From the IMG/VR virus record IMGVR_UViG_3300035180_000246, positions 1-64,000 of that record: a DNA stretch of 64,000 bases. One strand, written 5' to 3'. This document shows positions 3,674 to 55,074 of the stretch, piece by piece (positions within the stretch are counted from its first letter, which is position 1; each line of letters starts with the position of its first letter). This DNA is from a virus. The notes below the pieces were generated by a model. That model was not told the origin of the DNA. It did no database searches and saw only the letters and a list, made by a program, of their open reading frames with translations. A program made the position numbers and the translations under genes.

Positions 3674-5796
3674 GAACGTTTCTCCATATATTTACGATGT
3701 ACACTAATCATCACTGTTGTATCTAGTTCAGATACGGGTAATGGTTTAGGTAATTTGCTGTTAAACTCATTGATAGCAGACTTGATTACATCTAGGTCGT
3801 AACCTTTATCTACTAAAGCATAAGCATATTTAATGAGGGTATTACTTCTACTGCCTTCTGTGGCTTTAGATGCGAACCAGCGTTCTAAGTTATTTAGATT
3901 ACTATGTTCATTAATAAAAGTAGCTTGTTCATCGGCTTTCTTCGTCTTAGGAATAAACAAAGTATCGTCGAATAACATACCATCATTATAATAATGTGTA
4001 CCTGCGTTAGTAGCCCATTTACGAGCATAGTCAGCAGTAGCTTCATCTACCTTAAATGGTAACCAATCAAATACATTAGCCATAAAAGCTTTGTAGGCTT
4101 CTTGGTCAAGTAAAAGCTTGTGTGTCATAGGTAGAATAATTCTGAATCTGTTAGCAGCATCTGTATGTCGTTTAGTTGTATAAATTAGGTACTTGTAATC
4201 TTGTAATAAGATTCTAACTGTATCAATGGATGTACCACCATCTACATCTAAAACTACCATATCAAACCCTGGCATAACACTTTCAGAATTTCTATAGCCA
4301 TTACGTAAGTGGTGTGCTGTGAAATGTAAGTTATCACTACATACCAACTTATGTAAGTCATCCCAGTTAGCTAGTATATTCTCATAACCAGTAGTAATAT
4401 TATCACTATAGGCTATAGTAACTTCTTCTAGATTAGTCTCTTTCAGAGATTCACCTTTAAAGAACTCAACTGTACTATCAAAACTTTTAGTAATAACGAT
4501 GTTATGTTTATATCCATAAGCAATCGCTAAGTTCATAAGATCACGTCTACGAGATTCAGTACCGTTATAAAACTGCAAGTCTTCAAGTAGATCGGCATGT
4601 GTTACTGGATGCTCTACGTTAGCTAAATACTTAGCCAATTTAATGTAAGGCTTTTCACGATACATGATCGAATTGAATGCTGCACCTGAGTCTTCCGCTA
4701 ACTGAATTGCACAATCTAGATGATGTTGACTAATAGACTTAGCCTTATCAACAAATGCATATGCACCAGCTAATTTAAGTGCCTTATAATAACGATGAGT
4801 TACCTCAGCTTTTAAAGCTTCTTTATGATCTGGAATATTCTCTGCTAAACGTTCACAGTTAATCTTATACTCAATGAGTTTAAGACTAGTAGCTTTGTCC
4901 ATACTGAGAGCTACACTATAGTACTGAGAGTCTGCTAACTCATTAAACCAGTCTGAGATGTCTTGTACAGACGTAACCATAGCAGATGATGTCATTGCAT
5001 CATAGACTTCATCAGGTGTACGTGTATCGGCTTTACGGGCTGATTGAGTATACGCAAAATACATACGTCTAGCGTAACCAGTACGAAGTAAATCATCAAA
5101 GTCTTCTTCAGTTTTAGACGCATTTAACAACTTACTAGGAGTCCCAAACATAAGTAGATTGGCTGGACTTGCGCCATTCATTTCTACAGAACGTTTGTTC
5201 TCTGCAGTACTTTTAGTAATTTTTTGCTTAATAAGACCTTTATCAAATAATGATAGGTAGTCTACTAAAGCTTCAATATTGCCAGCTAAGTTAGAGCCTA
5301 CTTCATCAACAATTAAGTTTAATGAACCAGTGCGAGCCATTAGAAGCTTTCTGCGTAACTGCTTAATGGCAGCACTAGTAGCACTGTCAAAAGTAAATGG
5401 TAGAGTCCCTAGACCTTCATACTCAGCGGTTAATTGTTCCAGGATACGATCTGGATCATTACCAGTAGCTGATGCCGTCTTTAATGCAATAGCATTAAGA
5501 TTCTTGGCAGCATTTACGTTAAAGACCTCATCCATGAAATCATCTTTAAATGGATCTACAAGCAACTCTTCAAGAGTAGTCATGGTAAATGTTTTACCTG
5601 CTCCTGAAGGTTGTAGAGCCAATGCGTAAAGGTTTACTGGAATAGTACCTCTATCATGTGTCTTGATCTCTGTACGCATCATAGAAGCAATTAAGGACAT
5701 ATAATAAGCTGTCATGATACGGAAGAAGTGTCTATCTTCTCCACCAGTACGTCCTGCCAGCACATCTACGATCTGTTCTGAACGTGCATGGTACAT
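3670..5796 (-). CDS. N4 gp43-like DNA primase
   Basis: PSGAGKT P-loop, VLDVDGG, YTTKRH, RFRIILP, C-terminal G.RSNTL PriCT-like segment. Confidence 0.85.
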   Translation of the reverse strand: MYHARSEQIVDVLAGRTGGEDRHFFRIMTAYYMSLIASMMRTEIKTHDRGTIPVNLYALALQPSGAGKTFTMTTLEELLVDPFKDDFMDEVFNVNAAKNLNAIALKTASATGNDPDRILEQLTAEYEGLGTLPFTFDSATSAAIKQLRRKLLMARTGSLNLIVDEVGSNLAGNIEALVDYLSLFDKGLIKQKITKSTAENKRSVEMNGASPANLLMFGTPSKLLNASKTEEDFDDLLRTGYARRMYFAYTQSARKADTRTPDEVYDAMTSSAMVTSVQDISDWFNELADSQYYSVALSMDKATSLKLIEYKINCERLAENIPDHKEALKAEVTHRYYKALKLAGAYAFVDKAKSISQHHLDCAIQLAEDSGAAFNSIMYREKPYIKLAKYLANVEHPVTHADLLEDLQFYNGTESRRRDLMNLAIAYGYKHNIVITKSFDSTVEFFKGESLKETNLEEVTIAYSDNITTGYENILANWDDLHKLVCSDNLHFTAHHLRNGYRNSESVMPGFDMVVLDVDGGTSIDTVRILLQDYKYLIYTTKRHTDAANRFRIILPMTHKLLLDQEAYKAFMANVFDWLPFKVDEATADYARKWATNAGTHYYNDGMLFDDTLFIPKTKKADEQATFINEHSNLNNLERWFASKATEGSRSNTLIKYAYALVDKGYDLDVIKSAINEFNSKLPKPLPVSELDTTVMISVHRKYMEKRS

Positions 5797-5797
5797 A

Positions 5798-6166
5798 CTA
5801 ATCTCCCATATACTGAATAGTGTTCATATAGTTTTTAATAGCTACAGTCCAAGCAGATCTTGATTTATTAGTACCTAGACGTTGATTAAGCTCGGCATAC
5901 ATATCATCTAAAGTATCATAAATAGCTTTACCTAGTAGTTTATCTTGCTGATATTTCATAAGAGCTGCGTACCCTGCAGCAACTTGAAAGCTAGTAAGTG
6001 TTGATCTATCTACTTCTTTACGTGTTTTATAAGCAGTAGTCATAGTAATAGGTGTTTCAGTACTTACTACTTCTGGTTCTTTAGAGAATACTGATTTAAT
6101 TGATTTAACGAATCTATGTAACATTATAGTAGTCCTTGTTGTCTTAATGATTCTGCCTGTAGGCAC
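5798..6166 (-). CDS. Hypothetical protein (probable true start ATG near 6123, MLHRFVK)
   Basis: In-operon ORF between gp42-like gene and primase. Confidence 0.6.
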   Translation of the reverse strand: MPTGRIIKTTRTTIMLHRFVKSIKSVFSKEPEVVSTETPITMTTAYKTRKEVDRSTLTSFQVAAGYAALMKYQQDKLLGKAIYDTLDDMYAELNQRLGTNKSRSAWTVAIKNYMNTIQYMGD

Positions 6167-36623: not shown

Positions 36624-37229
36624 ATGTTTAACATTGTAAAAATACCTGCAGGAGATACTGCTGTACTCCAGTCAAGCAGTTATGATTTATATACCTATAC
36701 TGTGTATGTAGGTGAACACGTAGTAGATATCCCTTTAGGCGATTCTTTATGGTTAATTGGTGATACCTGTGCCAGTGTACATAGAGGTGGTACTAAAGTT
36801 AGAAGTGAATCTTTAGCTGTATTAATCAGAGGTTACCAATGTGAAAGTAAAGCATCTAGTTATGAGAGTATGGTAAATTTACCGTATATTAATGGCTGTA
36901 GTTCACAACAAGTGTTCCCTCCTGTAAGACATGGTGATCCTACGCTACAGCTGCTGTATATGCCTAAAGGTACTAAAGAACAAGCTCACCATATCCACTC
37001 AACTGTTAGAGTGGTTAGGGTTATTGGTGGAAGTGGTTACAGTATTCAAGGTATGACAGATGAGTCTAAAGTTCCGTTAAATCCTGGCGATGTGCTAGTG
37101 CTTGATAAGATGACACCACACCACTTTATTACTGAAGATGCTTACTTACTTGTAGCACCTATGCATGTGTATAGCTCTACAGTATTAGAGAATAATCATC
37201 CAATGCGTAATGGTACATTTGAAATTTAG
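36624..37229 (+). CDS. Cupin-domain protein
   Basis: HHIH...V..V..G.G...LNPGDVLVL....PHHF metal-binding cupin motifs. Confidence 0.78.
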   Translation: MFNIVKIPAGDTAVLQSSSYDLYTYTVYVGEHVVDIPLGDSLWLIGDTCASVHRGGTKVRSESLAVLIRGYQCESKASSYESMVNLPYINGCSSQQVFPPVRHGDPTLQLLYMPKGTKEQAHHIHSTVRVVRVIGGSGYSIQGMTDESKVPLNPGDVLVLDKMTPHHFITEDAYLLVAPMHVYSSTVLENNHPMRNGTFEI

Positions 37230-38130
37230 TAGGAGTATTCGTATGTTAGGTTTAGAAAATTCAGCAGATTCTGTAAGATTCTTTCAGTTTTTTGGTGTAA
37301 TACCTTGCGATAGGACAGGTACATTAGAAGGTTTAATCAATACTGTAAATACTGCCCCTACTGCTGAAGATAGAGTTGAGTACGTAAATACCACTTTTCA
37401 AGAATGTATTGATATGCAGATTGAAAAAATTAAAGCACATCCAATTAAAGATGTAGTACTTCTTTGGAGTGGCGGTATAGATTCTACTTTAGTATTCTAT
37501 GCTTTAGTTGCTGCTGGAATTACATTTAGTGTAGGTATGTCTTTATCATCTGTTAAAGAGTATCCTATGCTTGCTGCACAAATACAACAAGATGTATCAA
37601 CAGTAGGTAGTAGAATGTTTCCTACACTTCTAGCCTATGAGTTTATTAGAGAAATGCCTGAAGGATTCTTAGACAATAAGCTAGTAATTACTGGGGAAAT
37701 CGGAGATCAGTTAGTAGGTAGTGTACAAATGTTGAACTACACTGACCAACAAAGGTGTATGCCTTACGATGAAGTATTGAATACTAGTGAGTATGGTTTA
37801 TTTGATAACGTTATAAAAACACTTGTTAATACCGACAGTTTAACGTTAGGTGAATTTCTATGGGGCATGAATTTTGTATTTAAGTATCATGATGTATTAG
37901 ATAGGATTTCTGATAAACCTTTCTTTGGTACTGGTAGCATTGCTTTTAACTTTTTTGACAGCATACCTTTACAAGTATGGAGTATAAATAATTACAAGCA
38001 AAATGCTAATTTTACTAAACAAACTGACTACAAAAAAGTATATAAGCAGTACATTTACGATGCTAATGGTGATGAAGTGTACTTCAAGTATAAACGTAAA
38101 GTAGTGTCTTTACCTCAAATTAATAGATAA
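37210..38130 (+). CDS. Asparagine-synthetase C-terminal-like PP-loop adenylyltransferase (probable start MLGL at 37243)
   Basis: LLWSGGIDST PP-loop and VITGEIGDQL; no N-terminal Ntn glutaminase domain. Confidence 0.75.
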   Translation: MVHLKFSRSIRMLGLENSADSVRFFQFFGVIPCDRTGTLEGLINTVNTAPTAEDRVEYVNTTFQECIDMQIEKIKAHPIKDVVLLWSGGIDSTLVFYALVAAGITFSVGMSLSSVKEYPMLAAQIQQDVSTVGSRMFPTLLAYEFIREMPEGFLDNKLVITGEIGDQLVGSVQMLNYTDQQRCMPYDEVLNTSEYGLFDNVIKTLVNTDSLTLGEFLWGMNFVFKYHDVLDRISDKPFFGTGSIAFNFFDSIPLQVWSINNYKQNANFTKQTDYKKVYKQYIYDANGDEVYFKYKRKVVSLPQINR

Positions 38131-38209: not shown

Positions 38210-38848
38210 ATGTTAGTAAGTACTGTGTTAAATGATGTAGCTTCTGGAGATATTTATAATATAGCTCTAGGAGAGTCATTTAGAAATAATCCTTATAATG
38301 CTGCTAACGCTGATGCTGCCAATACTCTGATTAGCTATCTAAATCTAGCACTTACAGAATTGAGCACTAGGTTTAATATAAAAACAACTGTAGTTACTGT
38401 ACCTACTTATGAAGGTATTCGATTATATACGCTTAGAGATCCTGACTTAATTAGGGTACTTGAAGTGTATGATGATTTTGGAGTGCCTTTAACATTTCCG
38501 AATACAGTTGATGATCTTGATTCTTTTGACATTAAAGAAGTTACATTCAACACTTTTTTAGTAAACAATCCTTTAAATGACCTACACCTTAATTTTGTAT
38601 GTAAGATGCTACTTCCTGAAGTAACAGATATTTCAGAAGATATAGCTATTTCTAGAATGTTTTTAGAACCTGTATGTAACTACATAGCGTATAAAGCTTA
38701 TAGTTCTTTAGGTGGACCTAATAATCAAAAAACAAGTGATAGTTATTTTGCACGTTTTGAGAACAATTGTACAAAATTGTTAGAACGAGGATTTACAAAT
38801 AATCAAGAAAGCTTGTTTAAAAATGTACGTAACAAAGGCTTTGTATAA
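38210..38848 (+). CDS. N4 gp67-like virion / head-tail adaptor protein
   Basis: YLN.ALT.L.TRF, EP..NYIAY..Y, Y...FE..C..L, C-terminal .KGFV. Confidence 0.75.
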   Translation: MLVSTVLNDVASGDIYNIALGESFRNNPYNAANADAANTLISYLNLALTELSTRFNIKTTVVTVPTYEGIRLYTLRDPDLIRVLEVYDDFGVPLTFPNTVDDLDSFDIKEVTFNTFLVNNPLNDLHLNFVCKMLLPEVTDISEDIAISRMFLEPVCNYIAYKAYSSLGGPNNQKTSDSYFARFENNCTKLLERGFTNNQESLFKNVRNKGFV

Positions 38849-50143: not shown

Positions 50144-50761
50144 ATGGATGCCTTGCCAGTCAATGCGCTTACCTATTTGCCAGTTCTTAAACAAGAGCAA
50201 GTATCATATTGGCATGAACACTATAAGCCCAGCCTATTAGCTGGACAGGTTGAGCAAGAAAGTTGTACCTCACTTAAATCCCCCAAATGTTGGTCACCCA
50301 ATGCAGAGCTTAAGACTGACAGAGAATGGGGAGTAGGCTTGAGCCAATTCACCAAGACACAGTCTTTTGATGCTATTGAGGAGATCAAAGCCAAACATCC
50401 AGAAATTAACTGGGGAAACTGGTCGTTTAATCATCCATATCAAGCTAACTATCAGTTGCGTGGGTTAGTTGTCTATATGCGAGATTTAAGTAGCGAGGTC
50501 AAAGGGGCAGAAACACCGAATGATAATTATCAAATGGCGTTATCCGCCTATAATGGCGGCATTGGTGGGCTACGTAAAGAACGATTAAAGTGTAGCTTAC
50601 TGCTAACCTGCAACCCCAATATATGGTTTGGCAATGTAGAGTTAAGCAGCATTAAAAGCCACAAACCATTCAAGGGATACGGTCAAAGTCCATATGATAT
50701 TAATCGTGGTTACATTGGATTAGTATATAGCCGTGCTGATAAATATGAAGGGCGATATTGA
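50144..50761 (+). CDS. Endolysin, lytic transglycosylase (SLT-like)
   Basis: QVEQES catalytic Glu, GLSQF, ALSAYNGG.G. Confidence 0.85.
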   Translation: MDALPVNALTYLPVLKQEQVSYWHEHYKPSLLAGQVEQESCTSLKSPKCWSPNAELKTDREWGVGLSQFTKTQSFDAIEEIKAKHPEINWGNWSFNHPYQANYQLRGLVVYMRDLSSEVKGAETPNDNYQMALSAYNGGIGGLRKERLKCSLLLTCNPNIWFGNVELSSIKSHKPFKGYGQSPYDINRGYIGLVYSRADKYEGRY

Positions 50762-51237
50762 TGTGGTTTTACCCAATGATTACAGCAGCGGCTATCAGTT
50801 TCTTTGCTGGATGGTATGTAAATGGATTAAAGCTTAACGCTGAAATTGCACAACTTCATGCTACTTGGAATGAAGCCTACAGCAATCAAGTTAAAGCGAC
50901 GCTAGACAAAGAACACAATATTAACCAGTTAAACACTACGATAGAGGTGAATAATGCTATCAAAGCAAGAGCAATCGATGATGCACATGCTGAAAATATC
51001 AAGCTTGCTGCTGATGTTAAGCGGTTGCAGCACGCAGCCAGTGGCAGTAACCGCACCATGCCCAAAACTAGTGCTGCCTGCCAGTGTACAAGCTCAACCG
51101 CCACAAGCGGATTTTCAGACGAGAGTATCAACATTCTTGTCGAACTGGCAAAAGAAGCTGATGACGCTGCAAGATACGCAAACACCTGCCATGAATGGGC
51201 AGTAGGCGTTACGCAAGAATTAGATAAATCTTACTAA
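50758..51237 (+). CDS. Rz-like inner-membrane spanin
   Basis: N-terminal TM, coiled coil, A.EAD...C. Confidence 0.8.
   Translation: MMWFYPMITAAAISFFAGWYVNGLKLNAEIAQLHATWNEAYSNQVKATLDKEHNINQLNTTIEVNNAIKARAIDDAHAENIKLAADVKRLQHAASGSNRTMPKTSAACQCTSSTATSGFSDESINILVELAKEADDAARYANTCHEWAVGVTQELDKSY
50954..51205 (+). CDS. Rz1-like outer-membrane spanin embedded in Rz (start probably near 50978-50988)
   Basis: Alternate frame; lipobox LMLSGC; Pro-rich CP.L.LP. Confidence 0.75.
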   Translation: MLSKQEQSMMHMLKISSLLLMLSGCSTQPVAVTAPCPKLVLPASVQAQPPQADFQTRVSTFLSNWQKKLMTLQDTQTPAMNGQ

Positions 51238-51259
51238 AGATTGGACAATAAGGGTATGT

Positions 51260-51796
51260 ATGCTTAAAAAGTATATCGAAGAAGGTTATACATTTACTTA
51301 TGGTATTGCTTCAGATTATAGTGCTGTAGAGATAACCAATATTATAGATAAGCTTAAAATAGCTATGAATAAAATGAATGCAACTCTTACTGTAGATATT
51401 ATCAAAATTAATATAGATACGTATGTTAAGGAGATACTGAGCAATCGTTATCAAGTTTTAGCCATGTATGGAGAATCTGAATTAGTTGCTGCTTTTGTTT
51501 ACACCATTGGTAGCTCTGTAACTTACAATGGTGTAATACCTTGCTTCATATGTAACACTGTTTGGGTGTCTGATAGTGTTGTAGCTCATGATGTATTTGA
51601 CAGACTTAGAAATTTTTTATACAGTATAAACGTGTATTGTATAAAAGTGGTAGATGCTAGAAAAGGTTTTATAGATGTATTTGATAAAACTAGATTAAGG
51701 GAAGGTATGGTAGTAAATGAGTTAAATACATCCGATGTTATGGTATACTTTGATAAAAATGATAAAAATACAATAAATTTTATAGTACGAAGGTAG
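51260..51796 (+). CDS. Putative GNAT-fold acyltransferase-like protein
   Basis: Strand/helix pattern YQVLAM..ELVAAFVY..FICNTVWV..L..F....CI.V..ARKGF typical of small phage GNAT-like proteins; precedes ACP. Confidence 0.45.
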   Translation: MLKKYIEEGYTFTYGIASDYSAVEITNIIDKLKIAMNKMNATLTVDIIKINIDTYVKEILSNRYQVLAMYGESELVAAFVYTIGSSVTYNGVIPCFICNTVWVSDSVVAHDVFDRLRNFLYSINVYCIKVVDARKGFIDVFDKTRLREGMVVNELNTSDVMVYFDKNDKNTINFIVRR

Positions 51797-51801
51797 TAGT
51801 A

Positions 51802-52113
51802 ATGAATAAAGAAATCCCTCTACAAGAATTTTTAAATATCTTAAAAGAAACTATCGAATATGAATCTACAGGTTTAGACTTAGATTTTAGTAACTATTCT
51901 ACTAATTCTAAGTTAAAAGATCTAAATTTAGATAGCTTAGATACTGCATTAACTTTAACTGGTTTAGGTAATTATTTTAATATGCCTAGCGATGCTAATG
52001 TAGAAGGTTACTTTCCAGATGTAAAAGGTCCTAAAGCACATCTAACAGTTATGGATTTAGCTGTTTGGATTAATAAGTATAATAATAATGGAGTAAGTAT
52101 TGATGTATCTTAA
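51802..52113 (+). CDS. Acyl carrier protein
   Basis: Acidic 103 aa; LKDLNLDSLD phosphopantetheine Ser motif; L..YF....; TV.DL..WI. Confidence 0.82.
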   Translation: MNKEIPLQEFLNILKETIEYESTGLDLDFSNYSTNSKLKDLNLDSLDTALTLTGLGNYFNMPSDANVEGYFPDVKGPKAHLTVMDLAVWINKYNNNGVSIDVS

Positions 52114-52957
52114 TTCCTATTCTTATACTTTAGATCTTTTAGAATCACGTACTAGTGCATCTCCGCTAACTTTTACAGTTAGTAAACTGGTTTCAGATTT
52201 TAAGTATACACCTGTAGGTGATAAGGTAGGTACTCTACTTGCTGCAGGTAATAGTACTTGGGCAGGCACAGAGACTGTATATCTATCTACTATTAGTAAA
52301 GAAAGTGCTAGAGTATCTTTTATGCAGCAATCGCAAATAGTAGCAGGAAAGTGGGCTAAACAACTAAAAGCTACTGATTGGTTAAGTACAGATGGTTCTG
52401 CTTGTAGTTCTTTAATCATTACTTTAGATTGGGTTAAATATTTATTTGAATCAAGTAAGCTTACAGATGCTATTATTATTAGCGCAGATGATGGTACTAC
52501 TGAACTAGTAAAGCAAGCTTTTACTCAAGCAGGTGTTTTAGGTAAAGCATTTAACGTAGGTTTTGGTGCTAGTATATTTCACGTATCTGCTAAGCAAACT
52601 GCAAATAGTATATGTAAGATATCTAATGTAGTTAATAAATATGCAATTGCTAATACTTTGGTAGATGTGTGTGAAGAAGGGTATACTAGTGTTATTACTA
52701 AAGATTTACCTTTAAACTATGTAAAGATGCATGATACCAATACAGAATCAAATAAGGTAGAATTGGTAGCTGTTAATGTAGCGTATCCAGGATGTGATAC
52801 ATTAAGCTTTAAACAGGAAATAGGACACACTATGGGAAGTTCTACAGGTGTAGAATTATGCCTATGTTTAGATAGGTATCCAAATAGTAATATATTGCAT
52901 TTAAGTGCAGGTATGGGTGGAATGTACGGATCTTTTTTTACGGAGAAACTTAACTAA
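52100..52957 (+). CDS. Compact beta-ketoacyl-ACP synthase (FabF/FabB-like ketosynthase)
   Basis: Cys in GSACSS, F...G.L, F.VG.GA, YVKMHDTNT..N..E, K..IGHTMG.S, GMGG. Confidence 0.8.
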   Translation: MMYLNSYSYTLDLLESRTSASPLTFTVSKLVSDFKYTPVGDKVGTLLAAGNSTWAGTETVYLSTISKESARVSFMQQSQIVAGKWAKQLKATDWLSTDGSACSSLIITLDWVKYLFESSKLTDAIIISADDGTTELVKQAFTQAGVLGKAFNVGFGASIFHVSAKQTANSICKISNVVNKYAIANTLVDVCEEGYTSVITKDLPLNYVKMHDTNTESNKVELVAVNVAYPGCDTLSFKQEIGHTMGSSTGVELCLCLDRYPNSNILHLSAGMGGMYGSFFTEKLN

Positions 52958-55074
52958 TGAAAGATAAATACCTTTCTGCAGATGACAACCTAATTGATGC
53001 AGTTTCTGAAGAACAGTTAGAAAATAATGTTACAGAGACATTTGAGGTTAAGTGGAAGAATCCTCCTAAAGTGTCTAACCTAAAAGGCGACTATATTGCA
53101 GCTTTACCTACACATTCATCACATATTACTAATGTGGGTAATTGGTTAGATTTACTAAGTGGTAAATCTAAAACTAAGTTTGCTAAGAACAGATCTAGCG
53201 TACAACCTAAACTTGCACGTAAACAGGCTGAATGGCGTTATGCTTCATTATCAGAACCTTTTTTAAGTTCTAGTAACATATTTGATGCGCAACCTGTTAC
53301 GTGGGAAGATACTAAGGCTGCTGAACAAAATACTTTAGTACTTAACCACCAATTTAATAACAAAATTAATAAAGTAAGATTTGTTGACGAGTATGTACGT
53401 ACAGCTGTTGATGAAGGTACTATCGTTGTTAAGGTAGGTTGGGAATACGAAGAAGCTGAGCAAATGGTAGAAGAGCCTGTAATGGGTCAGCTTCCTGTAC
53501 AAGATCCTGCTCAAGCTCAACAAATGATTTCTCAAGGTATTCCTCCATTCCAAGAAGCTCAAGTAGGTACTAAACTTGTTAAAAAGATGGTTGCTGTTGA
53601 GAATCATCCTACTACTGAAATTTGTGAATTCGAAAACGTAATCATTGATCCTACATGTAAAGGTGACATTTCAAAAGCGAAGTTTGTCATACATAGATAC
53701 AATGTATCTATGGATGTATTGAAAGCTGATAAGCGTTATAAAAACTTAGACAATATTCAATTTACTGGTGAAGATCCTAGTACTTATCCAGACTACAATG
53801 ATAAAGATGCTGGTAACCTATTTACGTTTAAAGATAAAACTCGCAAGAAAGTAGTAATGTATGAGTATTGGGGATACTGGGATGTTAATAATGATGGTTC
53901 ATTAACTTCTATTTTAGTGTGCTATATTGGTAACACTATTGTTCGTATGGAAGAGAATCCATACCCAGATAAGAAATTGCCTTTTGTAGTAGTTCAATAT
54001 TTACCTGTACGTAAATCTATTTATGGTGAACCTGACAGTGTATTGTTAGAAGATAACCAAGCAATTATTGGAGCTATTACTAGGGGTATGATTGACCTTA
54101 TGGGTAGATCTGCCAATGCTCAACAAGGTATTAGAAAAGATGCTTTAGATGTAATTAATAAGCGTAAATTTGATCTAGGTGAAGATTACCAATTTAGCCC
54201 TAATATCATGAATCCTGAGCAAGCAGTATTTATGCATAGATACCCTGAAATTCCTCAATCAGCTATGATGATGATTCAGTATATGAATAATGAAGCTGAG
54301 TCTATTACAGGCGTTAAAGCTTATAATACAGGCATTGGTGGTCAAGGTTTAGGTAATACAGCTACAGGTGTTAGAGGAGCTTTAGATGCAGCTTCTAAGC
54401 GTGAACTAGGTATTCTTCGCAGATTAGCTGACGGTATTATTCAAATAGGTCGTAAATTCATTTCAATGAATGCTGAATTTTTATCTGATACTGAAGTAGT
54501 TAGAATTACAAATGATGAATTTGTTCCAGTTAAGAGAGATGATTTAGCAGGTAATATTGACTTACGCTTGACAATTAGTACTGCAGAGACAGATAATGAA
54601 AAAGCTCAGGAATTAGCGTTTATGCTACAGACATTAGGTAATAGTGTACCAATGGATGTAACTATGATGATTATGTCTGATATTGCTAAGCTTCGTAAGA
54701 TGCCTGAATTAGCTAAGAGACTTAAAGACTATCAACCCCCTGCTCCAGATCCTATGCAACAACAGATGCAACAATTGCAGTTACAGATGTTACAAGCAGA
54801 GGTTGTAAATGAACAGGCTAAGGGTCAAGATAGACAAGTTGATGCTAAATTGAAATTAGCTAAAGCAGGTGTAGCACAGGCTCAAACTCGTAAGATGAGT
54901 AGTGATGCAGATATGACTGACTTAGATTTTGTAAATAAATCTACAGGTGTTGATCATCAACAGACTCAGGAATTAGCTGCACAAAATCATCAACAAAACA
55001 TTGATGAACATGCAGCAAAAGCATTGCTTGAATTTCATAAAGAAAAAGCAATGCCTAAAGAAGACGCAAAATAA
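52957..55074 (+). CDS. Portal protein (N4 gp59-like)
   Basis: RSSVQPKL.RKQAEWRYA.LSEPFL, YEYWGYWD, TRGMIDL.GRSAN, ASKRE..ILRRLA. Confidence 0.95.
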   Translation: MKDKYLSADDNLIDAVSEEQLENNVTETFEVKWKNPPKVSNLKGDYIAALPTHSSHITNVGNWLDLLSGKSKTKFAKNRSSVQPKLARKQAEWRYASLSEPFLSSSNIFDAQPVTWEDTKAAEQNTLVLNHQFNNKINKVRFVDEYVRTAVDEGTIVVKVGWEYEEAEQMVEEPVMGQLPVQDPAQAQQMISQGIPPFQEAQVGTKLVKKMVAVENHPTTEICEFENVIIDPTCKGDISKAKFVIHRYNVSMDVLKADKRYKNLDNIQFTGEDPSTYPDYNDKDAGNLFTFKDKTRKKVVMYEYWGYWDVNNDGSLTSILVCYIGNTIVRMEENPYPDKKLPFVVVQYLPVRKSIYGEPDSVLLEDNQAIIGAITRGMIDLMGRSANAQQGIRKDALDVINKRKFDLGEDYQFSPNIMNPEQAVFMHRYPEIPQSAMMMIQYMNNEAESITGVKAYNTGIGGQGLGNTATGVRGALDAASKRELGILRRLADGIIQIGRKFISMNAEFLSDTEVVRITNDEFVPVKRDDLAGNIDLRLTISTAETDNEKAQELAFMLQTLGNSVPMDVTMMIMSDIAKLRKMPELAKRLKDYQPPAPDPMQQQMQQLQLQMLQAEVVNEQAKGQDRQVDAKLKLAKAGVAQAQTRKMSSDADMTDLDFVNKSTGVDHQQTQELAAQNHQQNIDEHAAKALLEFHKEKAMPKEDAK

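Follow-up and report, generated by a model that had tools for sequence, protein, structure and literature searches.

The gene cassette between the spanin and portal genes

The window analysed here comprises the first 64,000 nucleotides (64 kb) of the 73,858-bp IMG/VR record IMGVR_UViG_3300035180_000246, for which CheckV estimates a completeness of 100%. Between an Rz-like spanin gene and the portal gene (52957-55074; PHROG 1216, E 2.5e-234), the plus strand carries a cassette of three open reading frames (ORFs): ORF1 (51260-51796, 178 amino acids), a probable GNAT-fold protein by its ESM Atlas model; ORF2 (51802-52113, 103 amino acids), a diverged acyl carrier protein (ACP) by family profile and hhalign; and ORF3 (52100-52957, 285 amino acids when read from TTG), a minimal ketosynthase (KS) of the KAS I/II type. 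An original prediction, made from the sequence alone, had described three packed plus-strand ORFs between these two genes, and all of them were found in place together with the motifs and overlaps it had quoted. The portal protein is ~52% identical to the portals of Schitoviridae (N4-like) isolates and, judged by its sequence, the source virus is an uncultured N4-like phage. DNA near-identical to the cassette region is present in sediment and microbial-mat metagenomes.

Gaps of 22 nucleotides (nt) between the spanin gene and ORF1 and of 5 nt between ORF1 and ORF2 are followed by an overlap of 11-14 nt between the ACP and KS genes (52100-52113, plus strand). The likely start of ORF3 is the ATG at 52103, which gives a protein of 284 amino acids, with the same start and length as in two related contigs. 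At the other end of the gene, the last A of the KS stop codon (TAA, 52955-52957) is the first base of the portal ATG (52957-52959), producing the plus-strand junction TAATG (52955-52959). Both the 11-nt overlap and the KS/portal junction are identical in the relatives L002 and L003, and the overlap suggests that the ACP and KS are translationally coupled. No terminator was predicted between the cassette genes, and a scan for promoters and terminators gave counts not above those in shuffled sequence; the three genes are probably transcribed together with the virion genes.

Comparison with L003 gave ratios of nonsynonymous to synonymous substitution (dN/dS) of 0.20 for ORF1, 0.17 for ORF2 and 0.15 for ORF3, and of 0.08 for the portal gene. 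All three ORFs are under purifying selection, and are therefore real genes rather than chance reading frames. The GC content across ORF1 and the ACP gene (51200-52200) is 0.26-0.32; the portal gene has 0.32-0.38 and the lysis genes before the cassette 0.37-0.44. The drop suggests that this part of the cassette arose separately or more recently.

The DLNLDSLD motif of ORF2 occupies residues 40-47 and contains the candidate phosphopantetheine-attachment residue, Ser45. Asp44 and Ser45 are the sole invariant columns in an alignment of 58 KS-upstream ORFs. When used as a query, the profile of this viral ACP family matched 127 solved ACP chains at E <1 (best 2.3e-7), over nearly the full length and with DSL in register; the second-best solved match was NodF (1fh1, E 6e-7). 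ORF2 in turn aligned with the other viral KS-upstream ORFs in hhalign with a probability of 96.6% (E 6e-10). As a single sequence it gave sub-threshold ACP matches only (Pfam, TIGR00517), and its ESM Atlas model (pTM 0.64) resembled ACP clusters at TM scores of 0.57-0.70, a comparison with predicted models on both sides. The protein has 103 residues, with Ser45 at the start of helix II and an insert after that helix. The invariant serine, the profile matches to solved ACPs and the hhalign result all uphold the ACP identity originally proposed for ORF2, which on sequence grounds is a very diverged acyl carrier protein with Ser45 as its candidate attachment site. Separately, residues 1-25 of the ACP family (51802-51876) resemble a 29-residue Bacillus phage phi106 antirepressor peptide (PDB 9sf2_B, profile E 6.7e-4), a resemblance probably due to chance or to composition.

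Taken alone, ORF3 scored 16 bits with the Pfam family Ketoacyl-synt_C (cut-off 20.8, E 0.013), its only match there, and left the N-terminal domain unmatched; its match to PHROG 35856 reached E 3e-21. Searching 1.8 billion representatives exhaustively with a profile recovered 95 KS relatives, and an alignment was built from 80 of these. His211, Glu221, Lys238, Gly242 and His243 are invariant in this alignment, Cys102 is at least 90% conserved, and PF02801 was matched by 67 of the 80 sequences. The family profile matched FabF structures at E 2e-36, and the Cys-His-His triad of ORF3 (Cys102 in GSACSS, His211 in MHDTNT and His243 in IGHTMG) aligned with the FabF catalytic positions, as did Lys238. 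ORF3 also has the double alpha-beta-alpha-beta-alpha core of the thiolase fold. The thiolase fold and catalytic triad that had been predicted for ORF3 are therefore borne out by the family profile and alignment, which add the conserved lysine. The 80-sequence alignment was also used to make an AlphaFold2 model of the KS.

Despite this complete catalytic set, ORF3 is only 13-18% identical to solved ketosynthases and, at 285 amino acids, does not have the full-length KAS architecture of ~400 amino acids with cap and loops. Compared with canonical-like relatives it shows five deletions, after residues ~18, 34, 149, 203 and 260, which together remove ~125 residues of loops. The C-terminal loop reads GMGG, where its FabF counterpart reads GFGG. 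Judged from these comparisons of sequence, ORF3 is a KAS I/II-type ketosynthase with a complete thiolase-fold core and trimmed loops, and as a natural minimal ketosynthase it is of enzymological interest. The nearest outgroup KS, P0005, is 39% identical to it; the genomic context of P0005 was not recovered from viral or metagenome contigs. When genome contigs were scanned with the long-form KS alignment, all matches were to generic cellular ketosynthases (27-36% identity, mostly partial), which are uninformative about function.

The case for ORF1 is of a different kind. Its ESM Atlas model (pTM 0.78) resembled GNAT clusters at TM scores of 0.56-0.68 across 135-159 residues, both sides of the comparison being predicted, and eight of the ten listed Atlas rows carry a GNAT name. 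Read by eye, the order of strands and helices fits a GNAT, and there is a conserved ARKGF near the C-terminus. The coenzyme A (CoA) motif Q/R-x-x-G-x-G/A is absent after predicted strand 4 (WVSD-SVVAHDVF), and by eye its glycines are unfilled in all seven of the homologs, which are 67-75% identical to ORF1 and all belong to the lineage of the source phage. ORF1 had no Pfam match at E up to 10 and no significant match in NCBIfam, PHROGs or a PDB profile search, and the GNAT family PF00583 was not found in the genome. The GNAT fold originally proposed for ORF1 therefore finds agreement in the structural models but none in Pfam, NCBIfam or PDB profiles, and we consider it probable on the strength of the models. 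A predicted ACP-ORF1 complex scored an ipSAE of 0.00; it was run without controls and carries no weight either way.

Conservation of the ACP-KS pair across viruses

The short-KS family to which ORF3 belongs has more than 600 matching stretches in IMG/VR. Among 50,697 GenBank phage records searched by megablast and tblastn, the sole match was the uncultured MW202545, with none from cultured phages. For a census of gene order we used 99 dereplicated full-length loci, 95 of which include upstream DNA. In 94 of these 95 an ACP-family ORF lies directly upstream of the KS, lies at position -2, or is fused to it; a natural ACP-KS fusion is found in L031 (IMGVR_UViG_3300032212_000021, ~5001-6090) as an ORF of 363 amino acids. 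The conserved unit across phages is thus the ACP-KS pair, and the third gene depends on the lineage.

The portal family of the source phage is found at +1 or +2 of the KS in 43 loci. In a further arrangement, seen in 24 loci, the pair lies between the capsid to gp54-like genes and the gene for a ~800-amino-acid protein, and in nine loci, a non-N4 set that includes MW202545, it sits beside a 'stabilization protein' and large downstream proteins. The ACP-KS pair is almost always located among virion genes.

Nearly all lineages have a small third ORF on the same strand, 3' of the KS, and these ORFs fall into at least four families. Directly 3' of the KS we found c3 (114 amino acids, loci L056-L135), c8 (162 amino acids, loci L018-L054), c17 (155 amino acids, loci L001/L119-L135) and c18 (151 amino acids, loci L005-L022). 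None of the four families had a Pfam or NCBIfam match, and PDB profile searches with ORF1, c3 and c17 returned nothing meaningful. When the families were compared by hhalign they showed no clear similarity to one another, c8 against c18 giving a weak match (E 0.002), and the best match of ORF1 to any of the four was to c3, at a non-significant E of 0.004 and a probability of 8%. The source lineage has no such small ORF downstream of the KS and carries ORF1 upstream in its place.

The conservation of the whole trio, as distinct from the pair, had also been predicted. This holds for the immediate lineage, where ORF1, ACP and KS occur together in two IMG/VR contigs (L002 and L003) and a few short metagenome contigs; elsewhere, the ACP-KS pair is accompanied by unrelated-looking small ORFs 3' of the KS. 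The KS tree, obtained by a quick search and with long branches that call for caution, separates the viral family from canonical-like sequences and places the source lineage and P0005 on their own long branch. The type of third-gene partner tracks the KS clade, with 23 changes on the tree compared with 55 in shuffles. The order GNAT-ACP-KS-portal, in which the probable GNAT-fold gene is of full size and precedes the pair, is a new arrangement, and the lineage also has the shortest KS branch.

Possible function of the cassette

It had been expected that the cassette would depend on host enzymes, and the genome bears this out: complete as it is, it contains no match to the Pfam models for phosphopantetheinyl transferase (PPTase), FabD or FabA/FabZ. 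Host enzymes would therefore be needed for priming and loading. In the mechanism that we propose, and in which our confidence is about evenly balanced, a phage-private ACP-KS pair would make or alter an acyl group in the late phase of infection, and a transferase with a GNAT fold would pass this group on. ORF2 would serve as a dedicated carrier, converted to its holo form by the host PPTase. ORF3 would act as a pared-down decarboxylating ketosynthase with the full catalytic set, extending an acyl primer by malonyl units on ORF2, with malonyl loading carried out by host FabD or by self-malonylation. ORF1, with its probable GNAT fold but no CoA-binding loop of the usual kind, would most likely move the acyl group from the phage ACP to an amine acceptor. 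Host priming, actual catalysis, the role of ORF1 and any product or target are inferred. The original prediction had proposed that host acyl chains would be taken up and passed on to a protein of the virion, to lipid A or to a small molecule.

Some bacteria have dedicated sets of ACP, ketosynthase and acyltransferase, which produce specialised acyl groups that go into signals or into lipids of the envelope. The closest functional analogue of the cassette may be found in NodF, NodE and NodA of rhizobia, which are respectively a dedicated ACP, a KAS II-type synthase and an N-acyltransferase that uses acyl-NodF. As would be the case in the phage, a private ACP and KS depend on the housekeeping enzymes of fatty acid synthesis (FAS) for all other steps, and a dedicated transferase then moves the acyl group from the ACP to an amine. 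However, NodA is not known to be a GNAT, full-length NodE has ~400 amino acids where the phage KS has 285 and five loop deletions, and the Nod genes are bacterial symbiosis genes whereas the phage cassette lies within a virion operon. FabF or FabB with AcpP likewise share the fold, the Cys-His-His-Lys set and the DSL serine of the ACP, but the phage KS falls below the Pfam threshold, is ~125 residues shorter and belongs to a viral-only clade.

A more specific version of the proposal is virus-encoded lipidation, in which a specific acyl chain would be built on the phage carrier and attached by the GNAT-fold protein to a virion, portal-associated or ejection protein or some other entry factor, giving the particle a phage-made lipid anchor for assembly or membrane penetration. 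We regard this version as unlikely. A model for it is offered by the HlyC-type toxin-activating acyltransferases, proteins of ~170 amino acids with a GNAT-related fold that carry out acyl-ACP-dependent acylation of protein lysines. They resemble ORF1 in size, and their donor is acyl-ACP instead of acyl-CoA; ORF1, however, has no match to PF02794 at E up to 10, and a toxin substrate gene is absent here.

Several observations weigh against the mechanism as a whole. The Pfam PP-binding threshold (PF00550) was reached by none of the ten ACP-like ORFs tested, and these ORFs must therefore represent a very diverged ACP branch. Because ~125 canonical loop residues are missing, the KS may depart from the canonical enzymes in its substrate pocket and dimer interface. 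The assignment of ORF1 comes from a single source, in which a predicted model is compared with predicted models, and at the sequence level no relationship of the protein was detected, either with a GNAT family or with the third genes found elsewhere. ORF1 could also be an insertion unrelated to the pair, given that a single narrow lineage carries it.

This last point leads to a fairly unlikely alternative, in which ACP and KS form a working pair but ORF1 stands outside the pathway as an independent, lineage-specific gene. Candidate roles for it would then be that of an acetyltransferase using acetyl-CoA, of an anti-defence protein, or of a morphogenesis factor resembling acetyltransferases, such as those reported at the heads of podovirus ejection modules. 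Such a reading is consistent with the presence of ORF1 in one lineage where ACP-KS is widespread, with its position upstream of the ACP where third genes elsewhere lie downstream of the KS, with its lack of significant similarity to those genes, and with the low GC content of the ORF1-ACP stretch relative to its flanks, which fits a separate acquisition. Yet ORF1 is only 5 nt away from the ACP gene and shares its strand with the rest of the cassette, and the canonical acetyl-CoA-binding motif is absent from ORF1. The podoviral IVP-A proteins (T7 gp13, P22 gp14) do provide a precedent for small acetyltransferase-like genes within podovirus virion or ejection blocks, but searches at E up to 10 found neither PF11090 (T7 gp13) nor PF11039 (P22 gp14), be it in ORF1 or elsewhere in the genome. 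Moreover, as the source lineage is without the usual downstream third ORF, ORF1 can be seen as its positional substitute. An improbable further option keeps the pair active but makes it an auxiliary metabolic module, which would boost or maintain bulk host fatty-acid synthesis late in infection by supplying extra condensing capacity and a carrier for membrane lipid. The KAS I/II catalytic set of the KS would suit this role, and all other FAS steps must in any case be supplied by the host. Phage ACP genes have been annotated as auxiliary genes of this kind: gp30 of the Alteromonas Schitoviridae phage R22Y, an ACP gene in an N4-like phage, is a lone ACP interpreted as a fatty-acid helper gene, although no KS partner or virion-operon placement is described for it (PMC11705849), and Rhodobacteraceae prophages carry acpP, fabF and fabG, also interpreted as helper genes (PMC8224337). 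Against this, the phage KS and ACP are both far from their cellular homologs, as seen in the low identity of the KS to solved ketosynthases, its scores below Pfam thresholds, the partial genome-contig matches of at most 36% identity and the separate viral clade in the tree. The deletions take out loops that canonical enzymes use, and the private pair usually travels with a third gene and has virion genes, not metabolic ones, as its neighbours.

A decidedly unlikely role for ORF1 is that of a starter loader, which, in the manner of a curacin-type GNAT loading domain, would decarboxylate malonyl and place acetyl on the ACP. The order GNAT-ACP-KS would then be colinear with starter loading and a single condensation, and the product would be acetoacetyl-ACP or a short beta-keto acyl chain. 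Gu et al. (in Science in 2007) reportedly described this same domain order in CurA-type loading modules. Curacin-type synthases, too, combine a GNAT-fold unit with an ACP and a KS, and a pared-down KS might suit short substrates. The curacin-type polyketide synthase differs, however, in that these are megasynthase domains accompanied by an acyltransferase and others, and no sequence link was found to ORF1, which shows no sequence or profile similarity to any solved protein; in other lineages, the third gene follows the KS. Finally, the proteins might be non-catalytic, either as a ketosynthase-derived structural or assembly factor or as decoys that bind to host FAS components and inhibit them. 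The placement of the cassette almost always among virion genes and the heavy trimming of the KS would be compatible with this, but in a family whose members share 20-30% identity, the KS keeps its Cys-His-His-Lys set and the ACP its Asp-Ser with little or no variation. Near-invariant catalytic residues in such diverged members are hard to explain without catalysis, and we find the non-catalytic explanation scarcely credible.

A literature search found no paper on this cassette, and in the pair we have a viral-only, strongly trimmed ACP-KS that is fixed across the more than 600 uncultured viral stretches. A cassette that does act on the virion would be the first acylation system made by a phage; one that makes a small molecule instead would represent a new class of viral secondary metabolism.

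Neighbouring genes and other features of the genome

The genes around the cassette follow the plus-strand order holin (from 49849), endolysin (from 50144), Rz-like spanin (50758-51237), ORF1, ORF2, ORF3, portal, a scaffold-like gene and the capsid gene. The PHROGs label for the family of the scaffold-like gene is tape measure. It had been noted that phage N4 itself has only lysis genes at the portal, and this agrees with the N4-like Klebsiella phage Pylas (L137), where the lysis cassette is divergent from the portal gene with nothing between them. Unlike in Pylas, the lysis cassette of the source phage (49849-51237) is on the portal strand and directly upstream of the portal. Within the Rz-like spanin gene, an ORF of 83 amino acids in another frame (50954-51205) has a lipobox-like LSGC behind a hydrophobic stretch, and on this sequence evidence is probably an embedded o-spanin of the Rz1 type.

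PADLOC found nothing. Past the terminase region, at 36624-38130, there is a 201-amino-acid protein with a borderline Cupin_2 match (E 2.8e-6, 27.4 bits against a cut-off of 27.2), overlapped by an ORF of 306 amino acids without a Pfam match; nothing was found that ties these two to the acyl cassette. Further along, at 38210-38848, a protein of 212 amino acids matches the SU10 adaptor family (PF24175, E 7e-10) and is a candidate head-tail adaptor.

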